A DNA stretch of 64,000 nt from a bacterium (GTDB lineage: Bacteria; Zhuqueibacterota; Zhuqueibacteria; Residuimicrobiales; Krinioviventaceae): assembly GCA_963674595.2 (NCBI GenBank), contig CAXXFV010000016.1:192001-256000 (forward strand), in the 5' to 3' direction. The notes below the pieces were generated by a model. That model worked only from the letters and a program-made list of their open reading frames with translations, had not been told where the DNA came from and made no database searches. A program made the translations under genes and the position numbers. Shown piece by piece: positions 43,543 through 62,273 of the stretch. Numbering within the stretch: position 1 is the stretch's first letter; each line of letters begins with the position of its first letter.

Positions 43543-46281
43543 ATGAAAAAATGTTTTTTTTATGGAATCTTTTTTTGTTTAATAAATACTAGTTTTGCAA
43601 TCGATATGATTGCCGATATTTCCAATCCGGTTGAAACTGAGTTCGGTATTTATCAACCCTTTCCGGTTTTAATTACACCGCAAATTATTGACCCCCAGCC
43701 TGGAGGAAATCTGGAGAATGTTGTAAATTTGGGAGATTTTGAATTTGATCCTAAAAGTTTACAGATGTTAAAAAGTAATCAGTTTGTAGTGACATCTGCA
43801 ACATATTCCAAACCCGGCAGTGAAGCCACAGGTTTTAAAGAGATGTTTGATGTATATAATGATTGCCGGGAAAACGGGATTCCTGCATTTGTAACAACCG
43901 ATGCCATGCTTCATACTTTCCACCTGTGTTTTGATTATATTTTAAAAACCTGTGAAGAAAAAAGATTTTGTTCATTGTTGAATACGCTTTTGGACTCTTT
44001 GCTGATTGAAACTCAGCGTCAATATTCCATCACAAATAACGATGTGATACGGTCTGCAATTATCAGCAATATGGATTATCTCATTGTTGCAAAAAAACTG
44101 TTGGACAGCACCTATGTAGAGCCTGTTAATGGCGGAAAGTACCTTGAAGAGCTTGAGCTTATCCGACAGGCAAATGGTTTTTCTTTATCCCCAATATTTG
44201 ATTATGATGAAGATTATTCTCAATATATTGTTCGCGGGCATTATACAGACAGCGAACAGCTTTCTGCTTATTTTAAATCAATGATGTGGCTGGGGAGGAT
44301 GACCTTTGCCTGTGTAGCGCCGGATGATGAAGCAAGCCGGCAAGCCACTCAACGGGCTATTTTACTGGTACAGGCATTAATGAATGTCAATATAAACGAT
44401 CGGACGGCACTGGAAATTTGGGATGAAATTTATCAGCCGACTGTGTTTTTTGTCGGAAAAAGTGATGATATAAATTTTTACCAGTACATTACAATTGCAC
44501 AGCAAGTCTATGGCGTCGAGTTTTCATCTCTTTATCCGGATGCTTTTGCAGATGATGACAATTTGACTGAATTTTTAAATCATACAAAAGAATTTCCTGT
44601 TGCGGCCATTACTTATCCGGGGCAGCCGATTAAAGGCTTTCGATTTATGGGACAGCGTTTTATTCCGGATTCCTGGGTGCTTGATGAACTTGTTATGACA
44701 AAAATACCGGGCCGTGCTATGCCAAAAGGATTGGATGTGATGATAGTGCTGGGTGATGAAAAAGCTTTTGATTATTTGCCACAGGAAGACAGGAACAATC
44801 CATTTTATACGGAAAAGCTTGATTCCCTTGTTAATATTTTTAAAAATTATGCACCTGAGATTTGGGCGCAAAATGTTTATTGGAACTGGCTTTATTCTCT
44901 CATGCCGATGCTGGCTTTAAAAGGAGAGGGCTATCCGTTTTATATGCGGACCGATGCCTGGGGCGACAAGGATTTGCTTGCTGCTTTAGCATCCTGGGCC
45001 GAGTTACGGCATGATACTATTTTATATGCAAAACAAAGTGGTTCAGAAACCAGTATGCCGCCGACAACAGGATTAGTTCAGGGATATGTCGAACCAAATC
45101 CGCATTTGTTTGGCCGGCTAGCCGCTTTGGCCAGTTTTTTACAAACAGGACTGCAAAATAAAGGTTTGTTGTTTGAAGAGTTTGAATTTTCTTTGAACAG
45201 TTTTTATGAAACAAGTAAGAGTTTAAAAACAATAGCTGAAAAAGAGTTAACAAATGAATCGCTGACAGCAGAAGAGTATAAACTCATTTTTGATTTTGGA
45301 AAAACGATTTATAGAATTATAGGATTTGAACAATATGCTGAAGGCCCCAGTAATTATGATGATGATATTGAACCCATGCCGGTCGTCGCGGATGTTCATA
45401 CGGATGGAAATAGCTTAACCGTATTGGAAGAAGGTGTCGGCTTTCCCTATGCCATTTATGTTATCTGTAATATTGAAGGCCGCCCTGTTTTAACAAAGGG
45501 TGCCGGGTATTCTTATTACGAATTTACCAAACCGCTTACTGAACGTATGACCGATGAAAAATGGCGGGAAACATTACAAACAGAGCCGCCGTCACCGCCG
45601 ACATGGTCTCAGTCTTTTTATGTAAATCAGGATTCATGGATCAACTCGAATCCGGAGTTTAGCTATGGTTATAAAAATGAAACAAAATATTTAACATGTG
45701 ATGTAACTCCGGAATCACCGGCCCAGGGCGACTCGGTTGAAATTAAAGTAGAACTGTTTGGATATAACCTGGAAGATGATGTTGCTATAAAACTGACATT
45801 TGAAAACGGTAGTGAAATGACAGTTGATAATTTAAACCATTCATCATATAATTTATGGACGGCCAAAATTCCGTCGACAAATTTTGTGCCCGGCCAGGTT
45901 TATATTGATGTAAATATTTCCGGTTCCGGTAATTCGCCGGATTATCGCACCAGTTTTATACTCAATAGCAGTTCTATTATTGTCGATAAATCCGTCTCAC
46001 CTGCGATATTTCAATTATACCAGAACTGGCCCAATCCTTTTAATTCGCAAACGAAAATTCAGTTTGATTTGAAAAAACAGTCATATATTTCTGTTGTCAT
46101 TTTTGATGTAAACGGGCGTCGTTTAAAAACCGTATATCAAGGCAACCAGGGACCGGGGCAATATTCGCTTGTATGGGACGGCAAAGATGAAAATGGATCT
46201 GTCGTTTGCAGCGGTGTTTATTATTATCGGTTAGAAACAGACTATTTTAATGACATAAAGAGTATGGTTCTTTTGAAATAG
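43543..46281 (+). CDS. Secreted DUF3160-domain protein with Ig-like region and C-terminal sorting domain
   Basis: Signal peptide SFA-I; FVTTDAMLH, EDYSQYIVRGHYT, YFKSMMWLGR, FRFMGQRF, ASWAELRHDTILYAKQS, GYVEP, SYYEF; LYQNWPNPFN. Confidence 0.88.
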   Translation: MKKCFFYGIFFCLINTSFAIDMIADISNPVETEFGIYQPFPVLITPQIIDPQPGGNLENVVNLGDFEFDPKSLQMLKSNQFVVTSATYSKPGSEATGFKEMFDVYNDCRENGIPAFVTTDAMLHTFHLCFDYILKTCEEKRFCSLLNTLLDSLLIETQRQYSITNNDVIRSAIISNMDYLIVAKKLLDSTYVEPVNGGKYLEELELIRQANGFSLSPIFDYDEDYSQYIVRGHYTDSEQLSAYFKSMMWLGRMTFACVAPDDEASRQATQRAILLVQALMNVNINDRTALEIWDEIYQPTVFFVGKSDDINFYQYITIAQQVYGVEFSSLYPDAFADDDNLTEFLNHTKEFPVAAITYPGQPIKGFRFMGQRFIPDSWVLDELVMTKIPGRAMPKGLDVMIVLGDEKAFDYLPQEDRNNPFYTEKLDSLVNIFKNYAPEIWAQNVYWNWLYSLMPMLALKGEGYPFYMRTDAWGDKDLLAALASWAELRHDTILYAKQSGSETSMPPTTGLVQGYVEPNPHLFGRLAALASFLQTGLQNKGLLFEEFEFSLNSFYETSKSLKTIAEKELTNESLTAEEYKLIFDFGKTIYRIIGFEQYAEGPSNYDDDIEPMPVVADVHTDGNSLTVLEEGVGFPYAIYVICNIEGRPVLTKGAGYSYYEFTKPLTERMTDEKWRETLQTEPPSPPTWSQSFYVNQDSWINSNPEFSYGYKNETKYLTCDVTPESPAQGDSVEIKVELFGYNLEDDVAIKLTFENGSEMTVDNLNHSSYNLWTAKIPSTNFVPGQVYIDVNISGSGNSPDYRTSFILNSSSIIVDKSVSPAIFQLYQNWPNPFNSQTKIQFDLKKQSYISVVIFDVNGRRLKTVYQGNQGPGQYSLVWDGKDENGSVVCSGVYYYRLETDYFNDIKSMVLLK

Positions 46282-46295
46282 GGATTGAGAATAAA

Positions 46296-46535
46296 ATGAT
46301 ACGACCAAAATTAGTCTGTTTTCTAATGATAGCAAGTGCGTTACCATTATATGCCCAACTCGTTTCTGTTAAAACGGTTCCGGTTGTAACAGGAGACCAG
46401 TTTGTATTGTATCCATCACAAAATATGGCAATGGGAAATGTCCGTTATATTAATCCGGCCTTAAAAACCGGTGATAAGACTTTTGAAAAATTACGTGTTT
46501 TTACAAATCAATTAACACTTTCAGTTTCGTTTTAG
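46296..46535 (+). pseudogene. Probable internally deleted remnant of a secreted/outer-membrane protein
   Basis: Signal peptide LYA-Q, conserved-looking LVSVKTVPVVTGDQFVLYPSQNMAMG, then an abrupt beta-signal-like end NQLTLSVSF; only 79 aa. Confidence 0.4.
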
Positions 46536-46537
46536 TT

Positions 46538-47515
46538 TTGAGTAAAGAGATGTTTAAAGTTATGAATATATTATTATTATACTGGGTGGTTGTTTTAATG
46601 TCCTGTTCCAGTCCTTTTGAGCAGGAGCCTGTTAATGCCGGGATTAATATTTATTTGTTGCAAGATCAACAAGATACATCAAATCTAAATAATGAACCGC
46701 TCGTTAACCTGAAATTAAATGAAAAACCCTGGATTGCTTCCAACAATATAGAAAGATATGATTGGTCTACGCATACCATATATTTAAAATCTGCTGTCCA
46801 GCTTCCTGATAATTATAATAATATTTTGGGAAAATATTTTGTTGTTACTGCAAACGGTGTTGCCTGTTATGTGGGGCAATTTTGGGGATACCATTTATCC
46901 TCAATTCCTCAAAATCCGGTGTATAATGTGCCCAGTGAACGTTCAGAAATTACTTGTTTGCCTATTGATCCATCAATTGGAACGCTTTTAGAGCTAGCCG
47001 TCATGGATCCCCGGTACGATGTTCGAGTTAAGCAAGCTCTTGTCTCTTCAGGATTATTTTTTGCCGGAATAGATTGTGTTTTGGATAGTGTATCTGTTTT
47101 TCAGCAATCTGCCAACAAAACAACGGTCTCATATTCATTTAGTATCATCAATCAAACAGATAAAGATATTTTTGTGTTTGATCCTTTGAAAATGGGAACG
47201 GACATTTTTCACTATTATACGAATGGTATTCAATTCAATGCAGGACGAGAATCTATTGTGCGGGGACGGACCGATTCCATAGATTTTTCTCCGGAAGCTT
47301 ATATTAGTATGGATTGGTTTGTTAAATTGGGGAACAAGGAAAAAATAACACGAACGGTTAATTTGTCCGGTTACCCGGAAATTCCGGAGGAGCAATATTC
47401 GTGTTATTTTTATTATGAAATGCCCTATAGATTATTAGATATGTTGAACGTTTCCGAAGGAATTTTATGGACCGGACGTATAAAATCATCTGTTTTGTCT
47501 GTTGCTGTTAAATGA
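46538..47515 (+). CDS. Hypothetical lipoprotein
   Basis: Hydrophobic stretch and lipobox VLMS-C; start probably ATG 46550 or 46562. Confidence 0.65.
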   Translation: MSKEMFKVMNILLLYWVVVLMSCSSPFEQEPVNAGINIYLLQDQQDTSNLNNEPLVNLKLNEKPWIASNNIERYDWSTHTIYLKSAVQLPDNYNNILGKYFVVTANGVACYVGQFWGYHLSSIPQNPVYNVPSERSEITCLPIDPSIGTLLELAVMDPRYDVRVKQALVSSGLFFAGIDCVLDSVSVFQQSANKTTVSYSFSIINQTDKDIFVFDPLKMGTDIFHYYTNGIQFNAGRESIVRGRTDSIDFSPEAYISMDWFVKLGNKEKITRTVNLSGYPEIPEEQYSCYFYYEMPYRLLDMLNVSEGILWTGRIKSSVLSVAVK

Positions 47516-47572
47516 GGTTTAGTAATTATTAAAAAAGTGTATTTTTAGTTTGATTTTTAGAGAGGATTTGTT

Positions 47573-50500
47573 ATGAAACGATTTTTAAATTTCGTTTTTA
47601 TCTTTATGTTATTGTTTGTTGTATCAAATGTAATGGCAGCATCAGAAATTACACAATCACAAAAGCAGATAGCGAAATTTATAAAAGCCAAGCTGACGCT
47701 GCAATCCGGTGGAATGCTAAAAAGTGTGTATTCTACGACTCTACAGGAAAAAACGGAACAAACCGGCAGTATTTCCGGAACTATTTCCGGAGTGAGCTCC
47801 GACATGCCTTATGGAAATGTTTTTGTTGAGGCAATTTGTGCGGATTCTTTGCAAAATTTAGATGATCCGGCCAATCCAAAAGGCCTTGCCGTTGTTAATG
47901 AAGACGGTACATTTTTAATAGAAGGTCTTGCGGAGGGACATTATATTGTAGTTGCCTGGGCTGACGGATATGAGTTGCTTTATTATAATAACACAACCAA
48001 TAGGGGTGATGCTGAGCTTGTTTTTGTACGAGAGGGTGTTGAAACAAGCGGAATAGATTTTGATATGACACCTGTTGTTCCCGGCTCCGGCATTATTTCC
48101 GGACGTGTTGTCAACAATGCCGATCTTCATCCCATTGGCCATGCCTTTGTTCAGGTCTCTTCTCCAACGTTATTAGATAGATACGGTTGGGCCCAGGTCG
48201 ATCAGGATGGGTATTATGAAATTACCGGCCTGAAAAGCGGTGATTATCTGGCCGTTGCCCGTGCTGATGGATTTCTGGAACAGTATTATGACAATGCGGC
48301 TTCCAGGTCCGATGCTTTGCTTATTTCAGTGACTGATTCTCAACAGGTCGAAAACATTGATTTTTCCTTAAAGATGGGCGGCAGTATCAGCGGAACAGTA
48401 ATCGATTCAGAAGGGAATCCCGTTTTTGAGTCGGCCGTTTATGTTATGATGGCTTTTCAGGATTCCATTTTTAATGAAAACGGTGATTTAAAGCCAGGTG
48501 GTTATTATGATTATGCCAAAGCTGTTACAGATGAAAATGGCTACTATATAATTAGCGGTTTAGTTCCCGGTGAATATATAGTACGGGCCGCAATTTGGGA
48601 CAGATATGGATATGAAGAAAAATGGTATGATGATGTGTTAACATGGGAAGAGGCTACGCCGGTTTCTGTACAGGAAGAACAAAACGTCACTGGTATTGAC
48701 TTTACCATGTCTTTAAAAATTTCTAATGGCCTGATTTCGGGCCGGGTAATTAATGCTTACAGTAATCCGGTTGAGAATGCTAATATTCAGGTACGGTCTG
48801 TGTATACCGGGGATAATAGTCAACGTGTTTGGTCCTATGCAAAAACAGATTCACAGGGTTTTTATGCTGTTCGTGAATTGCCGGATGATGAATATTATGT
48901 TTCTGTTTATGCTCAGAACGGCTGGCAAAGCGTTCAACAATGGTGGCCCGGTGTTGATGATATGGCAAGTGCTACGCCTGTTTCTATTGTTAACGGAAGG
49001 ACGGAGCAGCCGATTGACTTTCAGCTCCCGATTGTTCCCGGAACGGCTATTTTGTCCGGTACCGTCCGAAAAATGGATGGAACGCCGATAAGCTCCGCTA
49101 ATATTCAGGTCAGTCCGGCAGAGGAAAAACAAACACCCGGATTAAATGTCTGGGCATGGGCATCTACAGACAGTAACGGCTTTTATCAGGTAAGTAAATT
49201 ACCGGCAGGTGATTATGTGGTAGCCGCCAGCAAGTGGGAAAGTGAGAATTTTGGTCAACAATGGTACGATCACGCCGACAGTCTTTCTTTGGCTACCGTT
49301 GTCACCCTGGGTGCCCGTGAGCATGAACCGAATATTAATTTTGATTTTGATCCACGGCCCATGTACGGATCGATAGCGGGTATGGTTTCTGACTCTTTAA
49401 CCGGTACGGCAATAGATCGAGCTTTTATTGAGGTTAAACCTGTTTACGCATCACGTTGGTATATGTATCCCGGGTTTGCGGCCTGGTCATTTTATGATAT
49501 TACCGACGAAAATGGACTGTTTTCCATAGATTACCTGTGGGAAGGTGAATATTATATTACGGTCCATGCAAACGGAAGTTTTGAATATTATAATGATGCT
49601 GTTGTTGAGAGTATGGCGCAGCCTGTAAAGGTGACAGGTGGTGAAAAAAGTGAAATAGATTTTTCTCTTGTAAAAAGAAATGACGGAACAGGGGCGATTA
49701 GTGGAAATGTATTGTCTGAATGGGATGATACACCTTTTGAAATCGCAATAGTAACAGCCAAACCTGCTGTAACAATCGCTCAATGGCCCTATTCGGAATT
49801 ATATTATACAGCCGTTACGGCTGTTGACGGCTCTTATAAACTTGAAGGCTTGCCGCCCGGTGAATATCTTGTAAAAGGGTCCAGTTATTTTGCCATTTCC
49901 GAGTATTATGACAATGTGTTCGATCCGGCTGAAGCCGAACTTGTTCAGGTTGCTGAAAACATTACAACGGAAAATATAAACTTTATGATTTCACCTGCCT
50001 ATTGGTTGTTCCTCGATTATGGCTATCCTGAAAAAAGTGAAACTATGATCAGCGGGAACATTTCTGATAGTGACGGAAATCCGTTACCACAAGCCAATGT
50101 GTATGTTTTTGATCAAGCCGGCCAAGCCATTTTCAGTTGTCAGGCAAATGCTCAGGGAAACTATCAGGTGAACGGTCTGCCGCCCGGAAACTATGTCCTT
50201 CAGGTGACAAAAGAAGGTTTTTCAAGTTTGTTTAACGGAAATGTCAGTGTATTGGAACAGGCCGTACCCATAGAACTGAATGGTATGGTAAACATAAATT
50301 TTACATTGCCGGAAATAGGTTCTACTCATGTTTCCGATGAAGATAAATCGTTGTTGCCGAAATCTGTAACACTGCTGGGTAACTATCCCAATCCTTTTAA
50401 TCCGGAAACAATGATAACTTTTTCTATCCCGGAAATGATGGATGTAACGTTAAAAGTCTACAATATTTCGGGTGAACTTGTTAAAGTGCTTGCTGACGGC

Positions 50501-50638
50501 CCAGTAAGTTCCGGTATGCACCGGGTTACCTGGGACGGCAGAAACAGTGCCGGGCAACCGGTTACCAGCGGACTTTATTTTTATCGATTATCAAGTCCAA
50601 AGGGTGTTTTTGTCGGAAAAATGGTGCTTGTGCATTGA
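47573..50638 (+). CDS. Secreted protein with eight carboxypeptidase-regulatory-like/Cna-B-like beta-sandwich repeats and a C-terminal sorting domain
   Basis: Eight approx. 105-115-aa units starting G-ISG-V with G-Y-I-GL-G-Y-V-A, YYD and IDF motifs; LLGNYPNPFNP...WDG-N-G-V-SG-YFY. Confidence 0.85.
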   Translation: MKRFLNFVFIFMLLFVVSNVMAASEITQSQKQIAKFIKAKLTLQSGGMLKSVYSTTLQEKTEQTGSISGTISGVSSDMPYGNVFVEAICADSLQNLDDPANPKGLAVVNEDGTFLIEGLAEGHYIVVAWADGYELLYYNNTTNRGDAELVFVREGVETSGIDFDMTPVVPGSGIISGRVVNNADLHPIGHAFVQVSSPTLLDRYGWAQVDQDGYYEITGLKSGDYLAVARADGFLEQYYDNAASRSDALLISVTDSQQVENIDFSLKMGGSISGTVIDSEGNPVFESAVYVMMAFQDSIFNENGDLKPGGYYDYAKAVTDENGYYIISGLVPGEYIVRAAIWDRYGYEEKWYDDVLTWEEATPVSVQEEQNVTGIDFTMSLKISNGLISGRVINAYSNPVENANIQVRSVYTGDNSQRVWSYAKTDSQGFYAVRELPDDEYYVSVYAQNGWQSVQQWWPGVDDMASATPVSIVNGRTEQPIDFQLPIVPGTAILSGTVRKMDGTPISSANIQVSPAEEKQTPGLNVWAWASTDSNGFYQVSKLPAGDYVVAASKWESENFGQQWYDHADSLSLATVVTLGAREHEPNINFDFDPRPMYGSIAGMVSDSLTGTAIDRAFIEVKPVYASRWYMYPGFAAWSFYDITDENGLFSIDYLWEGEYYITVHANGSFEYYNDAVVESMAQPVKVTGGEKSEIDFSLVKRNDGTGAISGNVLSEWDDTPFEIAIVTAKPAVTIAQWPYSELYYTAVTAVDGSYKLEGLPPGEYLVKGSSYFAISEYYDNVFDPAEAELVQVAENITTENINFMISPAYWLFLDYGYPEKSETMISGNISDSDGNPLPQANVYVFDQAGQAIFSCQANAQGNYQVNGLPPGNYVLQVTKEGFSSLFNGNVSVLEQAVPIELNGMVNINFTLPEIGSTHVSDEDKSLLPKSVTLLGNYPNPFNPETMITFSIPEMMDVTLKVYNISGELVKVLADGPVSSGMHRVTWDGRNSAGQPVTSGLYFYRLSSPKGVFVGKMVLVH

Positions 50639-50690
50639 TCCACATGATGTGTTAAATGAAATATTAAATTGAATCGTTAAAAAAAAGAGT

Positions 50691-52889
50691 ATGATCATGG
50701 AATTAAAAAATATTGCAGTTCTGGATTTTGATTTGGCCTACCTGGCGTTATTGTCACGAGAAGGATTAAAACCTCTCTGCCGATGGGAAAAATCCATCAA
50801 AAAGTCCCATCTGGATGTTTTGAATTCCATGGGATTAAAGACCCGTTGTATAAAACGAAAATTAAAAAACGGTGATTCTTCGGAAGAGGTTGTGTTTAGC
50901 GCTTCCGGCGCCTGGGTTGATTTTTATCAGGCTCAATTTCAAAATACACCATTGATCAAGTCAGACAAAAATATCAGACTAGAAGGTTATTTGTTTGGAT
51001 TTCCGTCCTGCTGTATTGAAAATTTTATACAACACGGCTATTCGTCAAACTTTTTGGCCCGGGAAGATCAACATATTCTTTTTCATTGGTGCTGTCCGGA
51101 TTGCAATATAACCCCGCTTTTGGTGCCTGAATATCGTAAAATATATAATATATGCCGGCACCTTTTCGGTGAAAAAGGTACGATTAAAAATAACTTTTTC
51201 GCCGGTGAAAATGTAAAAAGCCGTTTAAAAACGGCTGCGACATTGTCGCTGATTGTCGGCACATCGTGTCTTGTACCGATTTCAGGCCTTGCGGCGCCTC
51301 ATAATGATGATCCACATTTAACACCTTTTTATGAATACGATGATCATGATCAGGATTATATTAAAGACTTTTTTGAAACAATATTGGGCCTTAATCCTGA
51401 ATTGTTCGATTCGGATGGAGATGGTGTCGCTGACGGCGTTCAGGCGGCAAAAAGTCTTTATAAACAGCTTGCACAATTACCACATGAGCCCCGTACTGAC
51501 GGCCCCTATATAACAGATTATATGATGTATGGGCTTGAAACCTGTTCGAAATGTGATTCGGTTGTAAATATGGGATACGCCGTTATTGTCAATCCGATGG
51601 AAAACCTGTCGATGGATATACCCTATATTGCTTTTCACCATTATCTTTTGCACGGAAGTCTGTCTTATGAAGGTGATGTTCACAGCAAGGATGATATTAA
51701 TCCGGCACTGCTGGATGTCATTCTCAATGGTAAAGGTTCCTCTCACATTTATTCAGTAAATGGTGATACGGATGAGGATGGATTGACTGATTTGGAAGAA
51801 CCTTTTTGCGGAACAGACCCGACTCAAGCAGACAGTGATCAGGACGGTGTTTTGGACGGCCGGCAGACTGCCATCAAAATAGCAGAGCTTGTGGAAAGTT
51901 TGCCTCTTGTGCAAAAGCAAGATTCTCTTTATGCTCAAGATTATTCGTATGATGGTGTAGAACGCTGTTATATTTGCGGACAAACTTTTAATATGGGATA
52001 CCGAAAAATTATCAATCCTGTTAAAAATCTGACCTATGACCTTTCATATATTACCATTCATTATTTAAAATGTGGTGGTTTTACCTATAATGGAGAAGTC
52101 CATTCTGATCGTATTGATATCAAAGCTTTATTAAATGTCATTAGCTTGAATAGTGATGACCACGAATTATTTGTATTGACAGACAATGACCAGGATGGCT
52201 TGAATAATCAGGAAGAAAGTGAGCTGACGCTTGATCCGCAATGCTGGGACTCTGATATGGATGGAATCGGAGACGGCGCGGAACTGGCTCACCTTTTATA
52301 CGATAGAATTCAGCAGTTACCGATTGTGAACCCGGCTGATCAAATTTACAAAATTGATTATGCGCAGCGAGGCATAGAAGCCTGTGGTGTTTGTGCCCAA
52401 GATGTTAACATGGGGTATATTGAGCTCGTAAATCCGGTGACTGCTGAATCTCTCAAAATCGATTATATTGCACTGCATTATTTGCAGCATGGTTCTTTTT
52501 CCTATTTCGGAGCCATTCATCAGGGGAGGGTTGATCCTGTGCAGTTGGCAACGTTTTTTAACGAGCTTGTAACAAATGTGGACGATGAAAATGATCCAAC
52601 GCCGGTACAATTGCTGCTGGGTCAAAACTATCCCAATCCCTTTAATCCTGAAACGGTTATTCCGTTTCAGGTTCATGGTGATCAGGTATTATCTCTTTCT
52701 GTGAAAATTTTTAATGTTTTAGGGAAGGAAATTTGTACCCTCTTTGAAGGGCAAAAGGAAAAAGGGCAATATTCACTTTTGTGGAACGGTCAGGATGATC
52801 AGGGTGAGATAATGCCGTCCGGCGTTTATGTTGTGCAAATAAAATCAGGACACTTTAAACAGTCGCGTTTTATATCTCTTTTAAAATAA
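50691..52889 (+). CDS. Multidomain protein: Cys-rich DUF483-like N-domain, internal signal/TM segment, three DxDxDG + CxxC/HxxxH repeats, C-terminal sorting domain
   Basis: EGYLFGFPSCCIENF and HWCCPDC; RLKTAATLSLIVGTSCLVPISGLAA; three G-E-CxxC-NMGY-NP-HYL-(H/C)G units; LGQNYPNPFNP. Confidence 0.75.
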   Translation: MIMELKNIAVLDFDLAYLALLSREGLKPLCRWEKSIKKSHLDVLNSMGLKTRCIKRKLKNGDSSEEVVFSASGAWVDFYQAQFQNTPLIKSDKNIRLEGYLFGFPSCCIENFIQHGYSSNFLAREDQHILFHWCCPDCNITPLLVPEYRKIYNICRHLFGEKGTIKNNFFAGENVKSRLKTAATLSLIVGTSCLVPISGLAAPHNDDPHLTPFYEYDDHDQDYIKDFFETILGLNPELFDSDGDGVADGVQAAKSLYKQLAQLPHEPRTDGPYITDYMMYGLETCSKCDSVVNMGYAVIVNPMENLSMDIPYIAFHHYLLHGSLSYEGDVHSKDDINPALLDVILNGKGSSHIYSVNGDTDEDGLTDLEEPFCGTDPTQADSDQDGVLDGRQTAIKIAELVESLPLVQKQDSLYAQDYSYDGVERCYICGQTFNMGYRKIINPVKNLTYDLSYITIHYLKCGGFTYNGEVHSDRIDIKALLNVISLNSDDHELFVLTDNDQDGLNNQEESELTLDPQCWDSDMDGIGDGAELAHLLYDRIQQLPIVNPADQIYKIDYAQRGIEACGVCAQDVNMGYIELVNPVTAESLKIDYIALHYLQHGSFSYFGAIHQGRVDPVQLATFFNELVTNVDDENDPTPVQLLLGQNYPNPFNPETVIPFQVHGDQVLSLSVKIFNVLGKEICTLFEGQKEKGQYSLLWNGQDDQGEIMPSGVYVVQIKSGHFKQSRFISLLK

Positions 52890-52940
52890 CAGCCTGTTAA
52901 AAAGATATTTGCCGGGAAAATATTCTGTGGGAGGATTTAG

Positions 52941-53936
52941 TTGAAAAAAATTGTCGGGTATTTGTTGATTGCGATTGTAATGACACTAAGCGCCTGTCAT
53001 GACAATTCCGTGACGTCCTCATTTCAATTCGGGGAGCCGGAGCATATTCTGACCGGTTATTTTGTTCAATCCATAACATTTGACCATGAAGGAACGGCCT
53101 GGATTGGGACGCTGAAGCAGGGCCTGTTAAAATATGATACTAAACCCTTTCATTTTGACTCGTCAAACTCTATTTTACCGGATTCATTTTCTGTCGGAGC
53201 AATGGATATCGACAATTTGGGTCGTGTATGGATAGGATCGAATATTGGTCTGATGAAGTATGATAATAACAAATTCACAAAATTTGACAAATCCAATTCT
53301 CCTATCAAATATTATATATACGCATTATCCGTTGACCATAATAATTCTGTGTGGTTTACCAATGGTAATATTTACAATGGCGGCCTTGTACAATATGACA
53401 ATGAAAAATGGAACGTTTATACACCTGAAAATTCGCAACTCACAACTACAGTTATTTATGATATTGAAGTTGATAACGAAAATAATAAATGGTTTGTTTG
53501 CTTTGGCGCTGTCATAAAATATAAGGATAATCAATGGACATATTACAGGACTGAAAATGCCGGTATCAAATTGGATTATTCGTATCAACTGGCATTTTCA
53601 AATTTTAATGAATTGTGGGTGTTGTGCGATTATTCCTATTCTTCCCTTGCATATTCTGCTAAAGATCCAACTGTTTTAAAATTCGACAAGAGCAAATGGA
53701 GCATACAGAACCCGCCTGATTTTGATGGTGAAAGAACTATGGCAACGGAAATATACAGCGATAGTAAAGGATGGGTGTGGCTGGCACGGGGAAACGAGTT
53801 GATTTATTATTATCTCGGAAAGTGGAATTATTGCTGCAAGGTGCCGTCTACTATTTTTGACATTAAAGAACGTAACAATAATCAGATATGGCTGGGCACT
53901 GGTAATGGTATTTATATTATAAATGAATTTTTATAA
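52941..53936 (+). CDS. Lipoprotein with two-component-regulator-type beta-propeller repeats
   Basis: GGAGG RBS and TTG start; lipobox LSA-C; repeated D-x-G-x-W-(I/F)-G-T blades. Confidence 0.8.
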   Translation: MKKIVGYLLIAIVMTLSACHDNSVTSSFQFGEPEHILTGYFVQSITFDHEGTAWIGTLKQGLLKYDTKPFHFDSSNSILPDSFSVGAMDIDNLGRVWIGSNIGLMKYDNNKFTKFDKSNSPIKYYIYALSVDHNNSVWFTNGNIYNGGLVQYDNEKWNVYTPENSQLTTTVIYDIEVDNENNKWFVCFGAVIKYKDNQWTYYRTENAGIKLDYSYQLAFSNFNELWVLCDYSYSSLAYSAKDPTVLKFDKSKWSIQNPPDFDGERTMATEIYSDSKGWVWLARGNELIYYYLGKWNYCCKVPSTIFDIKERNNNQIWLGTGNGIYIINEFL

Positions 53937-53948
53937 AGTTATTTCTGG

Positions 53949-54566
53949 TTATTTATTTTTTATTACAAAAATCGCCAGATCGGAAAACAGGTTTGTGTTC
54001 AGGCAGCATAAAGCTCCGGCTTGTTTTTCTTTCAACATATTTATCTGCTTTACGATGGAAATATTTTCTTCTCTACAAAAATTTACAAAGTCCTTCAATG
54101 TCGATAGGTGGATGTTGGGTGTGTCATACCATTCATAGGGTAAAAGTTTGGACCCCGGCATAACGCCTTTAAAAAACAACTGTGAGCGCAGACGCCAGTA
54201 ACCGAAATTCGGCAAACTGATGATACAGGTTTTACCGACGCGCAGCATTTCTTTTATAACAAGGTGGGGGTGATAGACCACTTGTAACGTCCGGCTGAGG
54301 ATAACATAATCAAAGGATTTGTCCGGATAATCGCTCAGGCCTTCATTCAGGTCGGCATGCACCACCGGGACGCCGTTGTTGATACATTCATAAATATATT
54401 CATGATAAAGCTCTACACCATGTCCCTGGACTTTTTTTTCTGTAATAAGCTGTTTTAATAATTCTCCGGTCCCGCACCCCAAATCCAAAACAGAACTGTT
54501 TTCCGGAATCAAATCGGCGATAAGCTTGAGGTCTATACGTATGTGTTGAATTTTATCTTGTGTCAT
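53949..54566 (-). CDS. metW: Methionine biosynthesis protein MetW
   Basis: VLDLGCGTG, FDYVILSRTLQ, SLPNFGYW, LPYEWYDTPNIH; directly after metX. Confidence 0.95.
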   Translation of the reverse strand: MTQDKIQHIRIDLKLIADLIPENSSVLDLGCGTGELLKQLITEKKVQGHGVELYHEYIYECINNGVPVVHADLNEGLSDYPDKSFDYVILSRTLQVVYHPHLVIKEMLRVGKTCIISLPNFGYWRLRSQLFFKGVMPGSKLLPYEWYDTPNIHLSTLKDFVNFCREENISIVKQINMLKEKQAGALCCLNTNLFSDLAIFVIKNK

Positions 54567-55712
54567 TTAACGTCCTTCATAAACGTGTGTCAAAAAGCCG
54601 GAGATCATACGTTCCATTCCCTCATTGGGTAATAAAAATGCATCATGACCATAGGGGGATGGAATTTCGCAAAAGGAAACATCTTTTCTGTTTATTTTAA
54701 GCGCTTTGACCATTTTTTTTGAATCTGATGTGCGGAACAGCCAGTCTGAAGAAAAAGAAAGTATTAAAAATTTTGCTGTTACATTTTTAAAGGCTTCTTC
54801 CAAAGAACCGTGCTCCCGCTTCAAATCAAAATAGTCAATGGCTTTGGTAATATAAAGATATGTGTTGGCATCGAAGCGGCGAATAAAAGTTTCTCCCTGA
54901 TGTCGCAAATAACTTTCCACCTGAAAGTCGGTTTCAAAATCAAATCCATAGCGTTCTTTTTCCTGGAGACGTCTGCCGAATTTTTTATGCATGGATTCTT
55001 CGCTGAGATAGGTAATATGGGCCAGCATTCTGGCAACGGACAGGCCCTGAGATGGTATCGTGTTTTTTTGCGGATAATCTCCATTGTGCCAGTTTGCGTC
55101 CGCATATATTGCCTGACGACCGACTTCGTCAAAGGCAATTCCCTGGGCACTGAGACGACTTGTCGTTGCAATGGGGATGGCCGATAACGTCCTTTCGGGA
55201 TATTCAATGGCCCATTCGAGCACCTGCATGCCGCCCATGGACCCGCCGATGACGGATAACAGTTTTTCAATACCCAGTGAATCGATCAGTTTGACCTGCG
55301 CTTTGACCATGTCACCGATGGTAATGACCGGAAAATGAAGATTGTATGGTTCGCCGGTTTGCGGATTGATCGAAGAAGGACCGGTCGATCCTTTGCAGCC
55401 GCCGAGAACATTTGAACAGATTATAAAATATTTGTCCGTATCAAAAGGTCTGCCGGACCCGATCATAAAGTCCCACCAACCCGGCTTGGCGTCCTGTTCG
55501 CTGTGATAACCGGCGACATGGGCGTCTCCGGAAAGGGCATGGGTGATTAAAATGGCATTGTCCCGCTTGTCGTTTAATGTGCCGTATGTTTCATAGGCAA
55601 GCGTAATCGGGCCGAGCATTTCTCCGCTTTCAAGCTGCATTTTATCCGGTGGTTCGGCAAACGTTATAGATTGAGGTTCGACAATGCCTACGGACCCTGT
55701 TTTGTCTGTCAT
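54567..55712 (-). CDS. metX: Homoserine O-acetyltransferase
   Basis: [49 protein letters not shown]. Confidence 0.95.
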
Positions 55713-55747
55713 CCGTTTACTCCTGAATTGGAATGTTATGGTTATCT

Positions 55748-56722
55748 CTATAATCCGGTTTTTTCATCATAAATTCCTTCATAAAGTGTACTGGAAAGAT
55801 AGCGTTCGCCGGAATCCGGTAAAATGACGACAATGGTTTTTCCGGCAAATTCGTCCAGGTTTCCCAAACGTATGGCGGCTGCTGTCGCCGCTCCGCTGGA
55901 AATACCAGCCAGGATACCTTCTTCACAGGCCAGTCGTCTGGCAATATCAAAAGCCTCTTCGTTTGATACCTGTTCAACCCTGTCAATAACTGACAGGTCA
56001 AGATTTTTCGGGACAAATCCGGCCCCGATGCCCTGAATTTTATGAGGACCCGGTTGAATGGATTCATTATTTAATGTTTGTGAGATGACCGGACTTGCTG
56101 CCGGTTCTACAGCTACTGAAAGTATATTTTTCTTTTTTGTGTTTTTTAAAAACCGGCTGATGCCTGAGATGGTCCCGCCGGTACCCACGCCTGCGACCAA
56201 CACGTCAACAGCGCCGTTTGTGTCATCCCAAATTTCAGGACCTGTTGTGGTTTCATGGATTTGTGGATTTGCCGGATTTTCAAACTGCTGCAAAAGCACA
56301 TATTTTTTCGTGTCGCCCTCATAAATTTGTTTGGCTTTTTCAACCGCTCCATTCATGCCTTTTGAGCCTTCTGTTAAAATAAGGTTCGCTCCAAGGGCCT
56401 TGAGGATTTTTCTGCGTTCAATGCTCATACTATCCGGCATGACCAATGTACATCCATAACCCCTGGCGGCAGAAACAAAAGCCAGGGCAATACCTGTGTT
56501 GCCGCTTGTCGGTTCAATGATTTCTTTTCCCGGTTTTAGAAGACCCTTTTTCTCCGCATCCCAGATCATGGAAGCCCCGATACGGCACTTTATGGAATAG
56601 GCCGGGTTTCTTCCTTCCGTTTTTGCCAGAATCAGCGCTTTGCTGTCTCCGGTAATTCGGTTGAGCTTGACAAGGGGGGTACGCCCGATTGACAAGCTGT
56701 TATCTAAATAATAAGAATTCAT
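55748..56722 (-). CDS. cysK: Cysteine synthase A (O-acetylserine sulfhydrylase)
   Basis: [56 protein letters not shown]. Confidence 0.95.
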
Positions 56723-56735
56723 AATAACTCCAAAT

Positions 56736-58025
56736 TTATAATTTATTCAGGGCCTGATCAATATCAGCAATAATATCGTTGATATTTTCAATGCCGATGG
56801 ATAAGCGGACAAGCTCCGGTGACAGGCCGGCTTCTTTTTGCTGTTCTTCAGAAAGCTGAGAATGGGAAGTGCTGGCCGGGTGCAGGGCCAGGCTTTTAGC
56901 GTCGCCAACGTTTGCCAGATGGGAAATTAATTCCACATTGTTAATAAATTTTTCACCGGCCGCGCTGCCGCCTTTTGGGCCGAAAACGACCATGCCGCCG
57001 TTTCCCTTTTTCAGATATTTTTGTGCCAGGGTATAGGAAGGGTCCTTTTTCAAACCCGGATACCGGACCCATGCAACTTTGGGGTGGTTTTCCAGATATT
57101 CGGCAACTGCCTGCGCATTTTGGCAATGCCGCTCCATACGCAACGGCAGCGTTTCAATGCCCTGCAGGAAAAGCCAGGCATTGTCCGGCGAAATACAGGC
57201 ACCAAGATTTCGCAGGGGAACGAGCCGTAACCTCATAATGAATGCCAGCGGATTCAAATCTCCCAAATCGTGTGCGTAACGAACACCATGATAACTGTCA
57301 TCCGGTTCGTTAAATAATTTAAATTTTTTATCGGTCCAGTCAAATTTGCCGGAATCGACCACAATACCGCCGATACCTGTTCCGTGTCCGCCAATCCATT
57401 TGGTCAAAGAATGGCAAACAATGTCGGCCCCGAATTCTATGGGGCGCAGCAGGTAGGGTGTCGTAAATGTGGAATCGACAACAAGCGGCAAGTTGTGTTT
57501 TTGGGCGATTTTTGCAACTGCCTCGATATCTACGACCTGCAAAACAGGATTACCGATCGTCTCCAAATAAATGACTCTGGTTTTTTCAGTAATAGCCTTT
57601 TCAAAAGAGTCGATGGAACCCGGGTCCACAAATTTTGTCGTAATACCAAATTGCGGTAAAATGGAATCAAACATGGTATAGGTGCCGCCGTATAAATTGT
57701 TTGCCGAAACTATTTCGTCGCCTTGGGAACAAATATTAATAATCGTATAAAATATGGCCGAAGTTCCGGAAGAGAGGGCCAGGGCGGCTGCTCCGCCTTC
57801 CAGGGCGGCAACCCGTTGTTCAAGCACATCCTGTGTCGGATTCATAATTCTTGTGTAAATATTTCCCGGTTCTTTAAGAGCAAAAAGATTTGCCGCATGC
57901 TCTGTGTTTTTAAAGTTATAGGAACTTGTTCTGTAAACCGGGACGGCCCGTGAAAGCGAATCGGTGTCCGGTTTTTGTCCGGCATGTAATGCCAGCGTTT
58001 CAAAAGAATATGTGTTTTGGCTCAT
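56736..58025 (-). CDS. metY: O-acetylhomoserine (thiol)-lyase
   Basis: [52 protein letters not shown]. Confidence 0.93.
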
Positions 58026-58751: not shown

Positions 58752-58847
58752 TTTCCTCGTCCAGAGTTTCCATTTTTTAATTACTTGTTTTCTGTTCGTC
58801 ATAAATCGATTAAAATATATACTATAATAATTAAAAAGGTGTTTAAA

Positions 58848-60524
58848 ATGAGATCAGATAGTGTAAAAAAAGGAATTGAAAGATCTCCGCATAGAAGTCT
58901 TTTAAAGGCAACCGGAGTTAAAGATGAAGATTTTAATAAACCTTTTATAGGTATTTGTAATTCTTATATTGATTTAATACCGGGGCATGTACATCTGCAG
59001 GAATTTGGCCGAAAGGTAAAAGAATCTGTCCGGCAGGCTGGTGGCGTCCCTTTTGAGTTTAATACAATTGGTGTGGATGATGGTATTGCTATGGGGCATG
59101 TCGGCATGAACTATAGCCTGCCTTCACGAGAGCTTATTGCCGACTGTGTTGAGACCGTGGCGGAAGCACACCGGCTGGATGCTTTGGTATGTATTCCCAA
59201 TTGTGATAAAATTGTTCCGGGAATGTTGATGGCCGCTGCCCGTATGAATATTCCGACAATTTTCATTTCCGGCGGACCCATGAAAAAGGGAATTGATTCA
59301 AAAGGAAAACCTGTTGATCTTATTTCTATTTTTGAAGGAATCGGTGAATTTAAAGCCGGCAAAATTTCTGAAACGGATTTGAAAGATTTGGAAGACCATG
59401 GTTGTCCTACATGCGGCAGTTGTTCCGGTATGTTTACAGCCAATAGCATGAACTGTTTGTGTGAAGCGCTTGGAATGGCCTTGCCCGGTAATGGTACTGT
59501 TTTAGCTGTTGATCCGAAGCGGGATGAGCTTATCAAACAAATTGGTACGCGAATAATGGACTTGCTGGAAAAGGACATTAAACCGCTTGATATTATGACA
59601 ACTGAAGCATTTATGAATGCCTTGGCCCTAGATTTGGCCATGGGCGGATCATCCAATACGGTTTTACATACCTTGGCAATCGCCAATGAAGCAGGTGTGC
59701 AGCTCGATTTGGCCAGTTTTAATCCGTTGGCTGATAAAGTGCCCTATTTGTGTAAAGTTTCACCGGCAACCAAAACAGTTCATATTGAAGATGTGGACAA
59801 GGCCGGCGGTATTTCTGCGATTTTGAACGAGTTGTCAAAAATATCCGGTTTACTGAATTTGGATCAGATTACGGTTACAGGAAAATCATTGGGTGAGAAT
59901 ATTAAAAACAGTCCGATTCAGGATAATAATATTATCCGACATCTCGATAATCCCTATGCACAAAAGGGTGGTTTATCGATTTTGTTTGGTAATTTGGCGC
60001 CTATGGGCGGAGTTATAAAAACAGGTGCTGTGGCTGAAAAAATGTGGGATTTTCGAGGACCTGCCCGAATATTTAACAATGAGCAGGATGCTATTGATGC
60101 TATCTATGATGATAAAATTAAACCCGGTGATGTTGTGATAATAAGATATGAGGGACCCAAAGGCGGACCGGGTATGCCGGAAATGCTCTCACCGACTTCT
60201 GCGATTATGGGACGTGGTTTGGGTGATTCTGTTGCCCTGATAACCGACGGACGTTTTTCCGGCGGAACGCGCGGCGCTTGTATTGGTCATGTTTCTCCGG
60301 AAGCTGCTGCGGGCGGCCCAATCGCCGCATTAAAAGAGGGCGATATTATTCATATTGATTTATATAACCGAACGTTGGATATAGATATATCTGAAAAAGA
60401 GTTGAATGAACGGATGGCAACATTACCATCCTTTGAGCCTAAAATTAAAAAAGGTTGGCTGGCACGTTATATTGTTCATGTAACTTCTGCCAACACGGGT
60501 GCAATTTTAAAAATACAAGAGTAA
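58848..60524 (+). CDS. ilvD: Dihydroxy-acid dehydratase
   Basis: [69 protein letters not shown]; start MRSD (58848) after AAGG. Confidence 0.97.
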
Positions 60525-60527
60525 GTT

Positions 60528-62252
60528 ATGACGGCTGCACGAAAAACCAAAATTAGCGGTGCAGAAATATTTTTTGAATGTCTGCGTCAACAAAATGTTG
60601 ATACCATTTTTGGATATCCGGGTGGTGCTGTTTTGCCGATTTATGATCATCTTTATGATGTGGATTTTTTAAAGCATATTCTTGTTCGCCACGAACAGGG
60701 CGCCACTCACATGGCCGAAGGTTATGCCAAGGCAACGGGCAAGCCCGGTGTTGTGCTTGTAACATCCGGTCCGGGTGCGACAAATACAATCACTGGTATA
60801 ACCGACGCTTACATGGATTCCATTCCGATTGTGGTCTTTACAGGTCAGGTGCATAGTCATCTTATTGGTAACGACGCCTTTCAGGAAGCAGATACAACCG
60901 GAATTACACGGTCCATTACCAAATGGAGCACCATTGTTAAAAAAGCCGAGGATATTGCACCAGCTATTCGTAAGGCTTTTTATATTGCTACAACCGGTCG
61001 TCCCGGACCGGTTGTGGTGGATATTTGCAAAGACGCCATGATCAACAAAGCTGTGCATGAATGTCCAAAAGAAATCGTGATTAAAGGCTATAATCCGCCG
61101 GTTGAAGGACACTCGTCCATGGTCCAAAATGCAGCAGACGTTATAAAAAACTCAAAACGTCCTTTAATATATGCCGGCGGGGGTGTTATTCTTTCAAACG
61201 CCGGCAAGCAATTAACCGAGTTTGCAGTTAAAACAGGTATTCCTGTGACACTGACTTTGCATGGGCTCGGTGCTTTCCCTGGTTCTGATGAACAGTTTTT
61301 GGGTATGCTCGGTATGCACGGCACCTTTTCGGCCAATCAGGCTGTAAATGATTGTGATTGTCTCATCGCCATTGGGGCCAGATTTGACGACCGGGTTACC
61401 GGCAAGGTTGACACTTTTGCCGCCAACGCTGAAAAAATTCATATTGATATTGATCCGGCATCGATCAATAAGAACATCAAGGTAAAATACCCCATTGTTG
61501 GCGATGTTAAAGTTGTTTTGCAGCAGTTGGATGTTTTGTTTTCTGAAAAATTGGATTTAACGGATTGGTGGAATAAAATTAATGAATGGCGACAGCAATG
61601 TCCTTTGCAAGTGCCGGATGTGGATGAATTTATCAGGCCACAAAATGTTTTGAAAAAAATATCCGACAGGGTAAAAGGGAATGCAGTGGTTATTTCGGAT
61701 GTCGGGCAAAATCAAATGTGGACGGCCCAGCATATTTTATTTGATAACGAACGTTCGCATATTACATCCGGCGGATTGGGTACAATGGGATTTTCTGTTC
61801 CGGCAGCCATTGGTGCCGCATTTGGCGTGAAAGACCGGCCGGTTATTTCCATTAGCGGCGACGGTGGTTTCCAAATGAATATGCAGGAACTTATTACGGC
61901 TGCTTTTTACAAATTGCCCGTCAAATTTATTATTTTTAATAACAGTTATCTTGGCATGGTCCGTCAGTGGCAGGAACTTTTCCATGATTCGCGTTTTTCC
62001 TATACCGACTTGTCTCACAGCAATCCGGATTTTATCAAAATTGCGGATGGAATGGGATGTCAGGCAAAAAAGGTCGATTCTTCCGCACATGTGGATGAGG
62101 CTTTGGATTGGGCATTTAGCATCAACGATGGCCCTGTTGTTTTAGAGTTTGTGACCGTAAAAGAGGAAATGGTTTTTCCAATGGTACCGAGCGGCGCCCC
62201 GGTTAGTGAAATGATATTAAAACGTCTGGACCCTGAAAAGTTTGACGTTTAG
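60528..62252 (+). CDS. ilvB: Acetolactate synthase, large subunit
   Basis: FGYPGGAVLP, RHEQG, TSGPGATN, DAFQEAD, GMLGMHG, RFDDRV, GDGGFQMN, LGMVRQWQ. Confidence 0.96.
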   Translation: MTAARKTKISGAEIFFECLRQQNVDTIFGYPGGAVLPIYDHLYDVDFLKHILVRHEQGATHMAEGYAKATGKPGVVLVTSGPGATNTITGITDAYMDSIPIVVFTGQVHSHLIGNDAFQEADTTGITRSITKWSTIVKKAEDIAPAIRKAFYIATTGRPGPVVVDICKDAMINKAVHECPKEIVIKGYNPPVEGHSSMVQNAADVIKNSKRPLIYAGGGVILSNAGKQLTEFAVKTGIPVTLTLHGLGAFPGSDEQFLGMLGMHGTFSANQAVNDCDCLIAIGARFDDRVTGKVDTFAANAEKIHIDIDPASINKNIKVKYPIVGDVKVVLQQLDVLFSEKLDLTDWWNKINEWRQQCPLQVPDVDEFIRPQNVLKKISDRVKGNAVVISDVGQNQMWTAQHILFDNERSHITSGGLGTMGFSVPAAIGAAFGVKDRPVISISGDGGFQMNMQELITAAFYKLPVKFIIFNNSYLGMVRQWQELFHDSRFSYTDLSHSNPDFIKIADGMGCQAKKVDSSAHVDEALDWAFSINDGPVVLEFVTVKEEMVFPMVPSGAPVSEMILKRLDPEKFDV

Positions 62253-62273
62253 TTTTTAGAAATTGAGGTTGTA

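Follow-up and report, generated by a model that had tools for sequence, protein, structure and literature searches.

A conserved Cys-rich domain of predicted cytoplasmic location precedes an internal signal-like segment in a repeat-protein family of uncultured bacteria

The 64,000-nucleotide stretch of DNA analyzed here, called the window, comes from a bacterium of the phylum Zhuqueibacterota (GenBank assembly GCA_963674595.2, contig CAXXFV010000016.1, positions 192,001 to 256,000). Positions 50691..52889 of its plus strand hold a gene that consists of one open reading frame (ORF; P0001) of 732 amino acids (aa), with an alternative ATG start at 50697 that would yield a 730-aa form (P0002). The encoded protein joins, in this order, a Cys-rich domain of 160 aa (termed N-domain), a linker, a basic and hydrophobic segment that resembles a signal peptide, three repeats of ∼140 aa and a type IX secretion system (T9SS) sorting domain. 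An original prediction, made by a model from the letters of the sequence, had described this gene as a fusion of a cytoplasmic DUF483-like domain to a secreted metal-binding repeat protein, and the GFPSCC and HWCCPDC motifs, the KSRLK segment, the three repeats and the sorting domain all lie where it had put them. We find that the N-domain and the repeat protein form a two-part system, previously undescribed, that related bacteria keep as either fused or adjacent genes. Literature searches of main texts revealed no earlier description of this family, and searches on internal signal peptides with polyproteins, on T9SS with N-terminal extensions and on fbcH (a precursor considered below) returned nothing about it.

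The N-domain (50691..51170, residues 1-160; this and all other parts of the gene lie on the plus strand) is predicted to be cytoplasmic. Its N-terminus carries no signal, and residues 11-21 are modeled as a helix within a compact domain, with a predicted local distance difference test score (pLDDT) of 97 for the block. The domain contains the GFPSCC motif (50997..51014, residues 103-108) and the HWCCPDC motif (51084..51104, residues 132-138), the latter of which reads HWACPxC in most homologs. An alignment of the N-terminal 160 residues of 31 sequences, termed A1 and numbered from ORF residue 3, has a mean column identity of 57%. Its invariant columns include K25, R29, E31, C105, C106, H130, C133 and C136, and at least 90% of the sequences share an additional Cys (C153). 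Judging from this pattern of conservation, the domain probably binds zinc via the CC…H-x2-C-x2-C residues. The AF2 model (pLDDT 94.4, predicted template modeling score 0.87) consists of an alpha/beta core and then a helix hairpin that bears H-x2-C-x2-C.

The window protein carries, as GFPSCC, the motif G(Y/F)PxCC, described in the original prediction as typical of DUF483 (PF04467). Against the Pfam gathering cut-off of 25 bits, the N-domain scores only 13.7-14.1 bits, and the match is confined to the G(F/Y)PxCC region at profile positions 37-55; a six-frame search of the source genome gives 13.5 bits. When the threshold is relaxed to E ≤ 1, 28 of the 31 aligned N-domains match the DUF483 model (best E value 2×10−4), with ∼20-35 of the 122 profile positions covered. 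The best-scoring relative, the stand-alone protein P0251, attains 21.8 bits, which is still below 25, together with a weak Pfam match to DUF2023 (E 0.17), and a search from P0251 for a bridge to true DUF483 members returned P0251 only. The label “DUF483-like” is therefore apt as far as it describes a distant likeness of motif, but not as an assignment to the family, because the score is too low and the match is limited to the GxPxCC region. In the ESM Atlas, the top clusters for the N-domain (0.92) are unnamed, and in a further cluster, at 0.89, 27% of the members bear DUF483, which amounts to no more than a lead. The label “UPF0212 family” given by JGI to P0012 and P0079 was rejected, as Pfam scans of both proteins failed to reproduce it. 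A whole-word literature search for DUF483 found a single paper, on Thermus phages, which reports DUF483 beside radical-SAM and methyltransferase genes (PMC11437467) rather than beside secreted repeat proteins, the company in which the N-domain studied here is found.

The closest solved fold to the N-domain is 2GUK (Z 9.5, root-mean-square deviation (rmsd) 4.4, 109/112 residues, model residues 6-118) and the second is NleE, of the NleE/OspZ cysteine methyltransferases (Z 5.4, rmsd 4.6, 113 residues aligned), on a scale where best Z scores of 7-8 are common without a true match. For this reason, 2GUK can be regarded only as a probable fold relative, and it is silent on function. Foldseek assigns the pairing with 2GUK a probability of 0.97 but an E value of 0.25, and that with NleE an E value of 0.59; it returned nothing for the N-domain at E ≤ 0.001, as was also the case for a library of viral folds. 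A sequence search of the PDB with A1 found no match at E ≤ 10, and hence none to 2GUK. The latter is a Porphyromonas gingivalis protein of unknown function, presumably the prototype of DUF2023, which would share the core fold with the N-domain without sequence similarity and without the C-terminal H-x2-C-x2-C helix hairpin. In Bacteroidetes, DUF2023 genes are reported to adjoin flavodoxin and to be induced by iron starvation (PMC10434189), a genomic context that differs from that of the gene described here.

Downstream of the N-domain, a linker that is variable and gapped among homologs (51171..51215) leads to the signal-peptide-like segment (51216..51296, residues 176-202), in which the basic KSRLK is followed by TAATLSLIVGTSCLVPISGLAA, a 22-residue uncharged hydrophobic stretch that ends in …SGLAA. 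The strongest hydrophobic window of the whole protein lies here (Kyte-Doolittle 1.71 over 19 residues), and the small residues G-L-A before A-P mark a possible cleavage region by eye. Just past the hydrophobic segment is a DPH motif (51309..51317) that is conserved in fused and split forms alike. Use of an internal start codon was considered and rejected, since no ATG, GTG or TTG lies just upstream of the segment (the V before KSRLK is encoded by GTA) and homologs have no conserved Met at this place. As had been proposed, then, the protein has no N-terminal signal, its N-terminus being folded, and no start codon precedes the GLAA segment. Export by the twin-arginine translocation (Tat) pathway was likewise rejected, as neither fused nor split forms have a consistent twin-arginine motif beside the hydrophobic core. 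T9SS cargo and bacterial Sec substrates normally begin with a Sec signal peptide; here, the sole signal-like segment is that at residues 176-202.

The three repeats (51294..51728, 51729..52148 and 52149..52610) align over ∼140 aa. Each has two D-rich calcium-type loops of the form D-x-D-x-D(G), at residues 218 and 240, 359 and 381, and 498 and 520, five of the six being D-x-D-x-D-G. Each also has one zinc-type module (cores at 51435-51728, 51858-52151 and 52275-52568) in which C-x2-C…NMG, at residues 285, 426 and 565, is followed by HYL-x-(H/C)G. Across an alignment of modules (A2), G33, C37, C40, N45, M46, G47 and H69 are invariant, and the fourth residue past H69 is H or C. These residues would fit a Cys2-His2 or Cys2-His-Cys metal site, and from such patterns we infer metal binding by the module as well as by the N-domain. 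The sole TSP3_bac (PF18884) match of the window falls in repeat 2 at 20.9 bits, below the 25-bit cut-off, and some homologs have precomputed annotations with PF18884 or with the dockerin family PF00404. A Pfam scan of the whole protein at E ≤ 1 reports only zf-C2HC_2 (E 0.18) in the repeats. The module itself models with a pLDDT of 90.4, and comparisons with known structures gave no convincing solved fold: Foldseek found nothing at E ≤ 0.001, the best VIA-align Z score is 3.5, a PDB sequence search with A2 yielded only an insignificant zinc-knuckle likeness to eL43 (E ≥ 0.22), and the ESM Atlas gave no usable match (best score 0.79).

The protein ends with a T9SS type A C-terminal sorting domain (FlgD_ig / Por_Secre_tail; TIGR04183 / PF18962; 52629..52886), which scores above the cut-offs of TIGR04183 (33.1 bits versus 23) and FlgD_ig (32.9 versus 27) and below that of Por_Secre_tail (24.9 versus 27). 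The source genome (6.6 Mb in 37 contigs) contains T9SS machinery, including PorU (NF033707, 879.7 bits versus a cut-off of 420) and SprA_N (136.5 versus 27). The sorting-domain part of the PorU model has more than 40 further matches, scattered over numerous contigs, and the predicted T9SS secretome is accordingly large. Two additional long PorU-like ORFs are present in this genome, at C16:414305-418399 and C4:130388-134515.

A search of 5.8 billion proteins produced 136 matches. The first 82 rows (E ≤ 1×10−55) constitute the family, and those beyond have only calcium loops or the sorting domain in common with it. Of these 82 rows, 75 carry G[FYW]PxCC, usually near residue 101, and two to four CxxC-NMG modules follow. 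Among 1.84 billion representative proteins, a profile of the N-domain finds only 193 at E ≤ 0.001, nearly all of which have the same architecture or are fragments of it. One hit of another kind is P0247 (690 aa), a protein of low-complexity tandem repeats (…FAFPSCCVNAVLAQHQLGKELSSLL…) that matches the CC-motif region of the profile alone, seven times, and is probably no relative. A scan of 185,579 species genomes gave 206 pattern matches and 163 confirmed loci, of which the best 80 were kept, all of them from metagenome-assembled genomes; the counts out of 80 given here refer to the ORFs parsed in these loci. The 80 are labeled KSB1, Neomarinimicrobiota, Verrucomicrobiota, Planctomycetota, WOR-3, Latescibacterota, Cloacimonadota, Eisenbacteria, Zixibacteria, Gemmatimonadota, Ignavibacteria and Armatimonadetes. 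At 48 of them, labeled KSB1, Neomarinimicrobiota, Verrucomicrobiota, Latescibacterota, Eisenbacteria, Zixibacteria, WOR-3, Cloacimonadota, Gemmatimonadota and Ignavibacteria, the form is fused: a single ORF encodes the N-domain, then an A-rich hydrophobic segment and a D-(P/S/A)-H motif and, after these, one or more modules. A segment equivalent to that of the window protein is present in all 48. The N-domain stands alone at 28 loci, and the remaining four are cut by a contig end and lie outside the classification.

The oddity of this layout could raise the suspicion that unrelated genes were joined by a frameshift, by chance read-through or by a chimeric assembly, and single odd records do exist. 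Locus L059 (L059/P0133) has a frameshifted look, P0239 (433 aa), possibly a chimera, has a Golvesin_C domain fused to the first half of the N-domain, and P0196 (572 aa) combines the N-domain, in one of its rare partnerships, with a URO-D-like C-terminal part (E 6×10−4). Nonetheless, the same in-frame layout recurs at the 48 loci, which span many phyla, and 19 of the 167 genomes from the source organism's own phylum have it too. This refutes an artifact, to which we attach next to no probability. Since the layout recurs in this way, with 75 of the 82 family rows sharing it, error does not account for the fusion, and homologs are not always two separate genes.

The stand-alone N-domain genes encode proteins of 155-235 aa (typically ∼165 aa) without a signal peptide, and nearly all are labeled Pirellulales, Sedimentisphaerales or Phycisphaerales (Planctomycetota). 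At 26 of these 28 loci, a module protein is encoded by the same-strand gene immediately upstream, which in many cases abuts or overlaps the N-domain gene. Of the other two, L068 has a module-bearing ORF that the contig edge cuts, and L059 is the frameshifted-looking locus. Twenty-five of the 26 upstream proteins start with a basic stretch, an A-rich hydrophobic core and a D-x-H motif; the other, at L082 (Armatimonadetes), is a 128-aa one-module protein that lacks a signal peptide and overlaps the start of the N-domain gene. Since split-form repeat proteins begin with a signal at the equivalent position, the internal segment of the window protein corresponds to a true N-terminal signal peptide. 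A cytoplasmic domain can be fused to an exported protein only ahead of its signal, and the fused forms show exactly such placement. The topology originally envisaged, in which the N-domain would be cytoplasmic and the repeats exported, likewise finds support in the split forms, with their soluble N-domain and signal-bearing repeat protein. One repeat protein, P0083, has an ordinary N-terminal signal and no N-domain. Verrucomicrobiota and Planctomycetota homologs have different C-terminal ends; therefore, the N-domain and the modules make up the constant core, and the C-terminal anchor varies by phylum.

The same split forms bear on the possibility that the internal segment is an uncleaved signal anchor. 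The product would then be a type II inner-membrane protein, and its cytoplasmic zinc domain would relay what the exported repeats sense, much as an anti-sigma factor does. An uncharged stretch of 22 residues fits a membrane anchor, H-x2-C-x2-C recalls the zinc-binding anti-sigma (ZAS) domains, and ORFs resembling extracytoplasmic function (ECF) sigma factors lie within 6 kb at 10 of the 80 loci. However, seven of these ten are split-form loci of the planctomycete type, where shared gene order by descent may explain the association. The ZAS motif is H-x3-C-x2-C, as opposed to the H-x2-C-x2-C seen here; the N-domain has no anti-sigma Pfam match, and no sigma factor gene lies beside the window gene. 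Furthermore, the sorting domain implies release to the surface. Because the N-domain is separate and soluble at 28 of the 80 loci, where the repeat protein has a signal peptide of its own, its function needs no covalent link across the membrane. We therefore consider a signal anchor unlikely, and the sensing or export-control device suggested in the original prediction, which this reading restates, is weakened by the same loci and finds no support.

Wherever modules were found in the genomes examined, the N-domain accompanies them. In the source genome, the N-domain profile matches the studied gene alone and the module profile matches its three modules alone. Modules occur in 19 of the 167 genomes of the phylum, and in all 19 the N-domain is in the same ORF. 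A genome of the same class without modules (G149) retains a 46-residue N-domain remnant with an in-frame TAG (G149:C33:61318-61455, minus strand, 30.6 bits), which is probably a decayed copy. Among 151 genomes sampled from the class of a planctomycete carrier, both profiles match only that carrier (G167), and in five carriers from three labeled phyla modules are found at the N-domain locus only. These figures are given as counts and not as statistics, because related genomes are not independent samples. The pairing of N-domain and module is obligate. A prediction of the complex between the A1 N-domain and module 1 scored 0.03 against a mark of 0.32, which counts neither for nor against binding.

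Strict one-to-one co-occurrence, a cytoplasmic location and, in split forms, an N-domain gene immediately downstream of the module gene and often overlapping it are also what might be expected of an immunity-like inhibitor. Following the logic of barstar and barnase, the N-domain would keep the modules from doing harm in the cytoplasm, for example through metal scavenging or some other activity, until they are exported. Conversely, the modules are short tandem repeats between calcium loops in which only G, C, C, N, M, G and H are invariant, so that they look structural or binding rather than catalytic, and no toxin family was matched in the domain scans. Fusions of module and N-domain that lack a signal also exist as stable forms. 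In P0212 and P0206, a module-like C-x2-CG…GMG…HY segment is N-terminal to the N-domain in one protein, with no hydrophobic segment; P0206 (393 aa) has in addition a DUF1801 domain, another rare partner of the N-domain. An inhibitor is, in our estimation, an improbable identity for the N-domain.

A further alternative starts from the position of the N-domain, which in fused forms directly precedes the signal. It might recognize the signal region and control delivery to Sec, as chaperones of Tat substrates do for theirs. In planctomycete split forms, the repeat proteins encoded upstream (loci L006-L076, for example L072:5785-7935) share ∼20-28 conserved and very basic residues (MRRLRRAHQR…) ahead of their signal peptide's hydrophobic core; such a stretch is unusual in Sec signals and might be a recognition site. 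On the other hand, P0212, P0206 and the L082 pair combine module and N-domain without any signal peptide, and the hydrophobic core has no consistent twin-arginine motif. A role in targeting thus seems less probable still than inhibition or anchoring.

The signal-less forms would place the module beside the N-domain in the cytoplasm, which argues that the two domains work together directly. Because they can meet only before export, and because they co-occur in cytoplasmic proteins, the N-domain most likely binds or modifies the modules. We accordingly favor, with a probability of roughly 0.45, a model in which the N-domain remains cytoplasmic and, before Sec export, binds nascent modules or modifies them, after which the repeat protein is freed for T9SS surface display. 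Residues 1-160 would fold in the cytoplasm as a compact domain, and residues 176-202 would act as an internal Sec signal peptide that sends everything downstream of it across the inner membrane. Signal peptidase I would presumably cut near …SGLA/A. The freed part, with its three repeats of two calcium-type loops and one C2H2/C2HC zinc-type module each, might then be exported by T9SS by means of its C-terminal sorting domain and displayed on the cell surface. The N-domain would be an obligate cytoplasmic partner that acts on newly made modules, either as a dedicated holdase or anti-metallation chaperone that keeps fast-folding zinc modules metal-free and export-competent or as a pre-export modifying enzyme. 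That both domains model as compact folds (pLDDT 94.4 and 90.4) is consistent with this scheme.

Several observations weigh against this model of a pre-export partner. The module likeness of the signal-less forms is weak, P0212 having a BLASTP E value of 0.024. P0174 (333 aa) has an N-terminal signal, one module and then the N-domain, so that both domains are on the same side of the membrane; this protein ends at a domain edge, D replaces the first Cys of its CxxC, and it may be truncated, decaying or a read-through of tandem genes. The 22-residue uncharged stretch would suffice for an uncleaved anchor, and the closest folds, 2GUK of unknown function and NleE at Z 5.4, give no function. Moreover, one chaperone per substrate, discarded along with the signal peptide, would be costly. 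A more specific proposal, which we put forward as tentative, is that the DUF483-like domain is a new pre-export maturation factor, fused ahead of the signal peptide of the very Sec substrate whose zinc modules it matures in cis, until signal peptidase removes it. It might, for example, modify Cys residues covalently or control metal handling while the modules are cytoplasmic. If this were true, the signal peptide would serve to part an enzyme or chaperone from its product, and the module would be a new extracellular metal-binding fold.

The system is a variant of a known theme, that of T9SS cargo with a dedicated cytoplasmic partner. It shares with T9SS cargo the type A sorting domain, PorU and SprA in the genome and cargo-like neighbors, but 175 residues, including a folded domain, precede its signal. 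Cytoplasmic partners encoded by adjacent genes are known to act before Sec export in the case of HMW1C and its substrate HMW1 and of the glycosyltransferases of serine-rich repeat adhesins. Such adhesin partners are known glycosyltransferases and are not known to be fused ahead of a signal peptide; the N-domain, unlike them, matched no enzyme family. In the fbcH cytochrome b-c1 precursor of Bradyrhizobium, cleavage at an internal signal separates an N-terminal part from an exported C-terminal part. In that precursor, the N-terminal part belongs to the same enzyme complex and is itself a polytopic membrane protein, in contrast to the soluble, putatively cytoplasmic domain found here. The signal extensions of autotransporters are short, unstructured and about 25 residues long, whereas the N-domain is a folded domain of 160 aa that also exists as a separate gene. 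Autotransporters and two-partner secretion proteins are reported to have long signals with extra sequence before the basic and hydrophobic core (PMC2805444). Long autotransporter signals and fbcH are the nearest precedents, and neither has a folded soluble domain before the signal.

A conserved, folded 160-aa domain of predicted cytoplasmic location before a Sec signal is a rare layout, and here the same domain is also a separate adjacent gene in another phylum. Nature thus provides a fused-versus-split pairing of a cytoplasmic and a secreted protein, which points to a dedicated pre-export step for one class of surface proteins, whether it holds them, controls their metal or modifies them. Its carriers belong to many uncultured phyla, such as KSB1, Latescibacterota, Zixibacteria, Verrucomicrobiota and Planctomycetota. 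The system also gives distant relatives of DUF483 a first functional context, and defines a new, presumably extracellular module of Cys2-His2 type to which no solved fold was matched.

In the window, the gene belongs to a same-strand row of five, mostly T9SS cargo-like, that extends from 43543 to 53936 on the plus strand. The row starts with a DUF3160 protein that has a sorting domain (43543-46281), a 325-aa ORF without a Pfam match (46538-47515) and a protein of 1021 aa that combines seven CarboxypepD_reg repeats with a sorting domain (47573-50638). It closes, past the studied gene, with a Reg_prop protein of 331 aa (52941-53936). About 50 nucleotides separate the studied gene from its neighbor on each side. 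Promoter-like sites number 52, versus 36.9 (standard deviation 6.0) in shuffled sequences, and terminator-like sites show no excess (9 versus 8.9); neither kind sets the gene apart from its neighbors. At fused loci in general, other sorting-domain proteins are the sole recurrent group of neighbors, and they are probably linked to the fused gene through the sorting domain alone. Beyond the row, the minus strand holds a sulfur amino-acid block (53949-58025) comprising MetW (53949-54566, from a Pfam scan) and, by eye, a homoserine O-acetyltransferase-like gene (54567-55712), a cysteine synthase-like gene (55748-56722) and a 429-aa ORF (56736-58025). Further on, the plus strand carries IlvD, a TPP enzyme and an aconitase-family gene (58785-63698).

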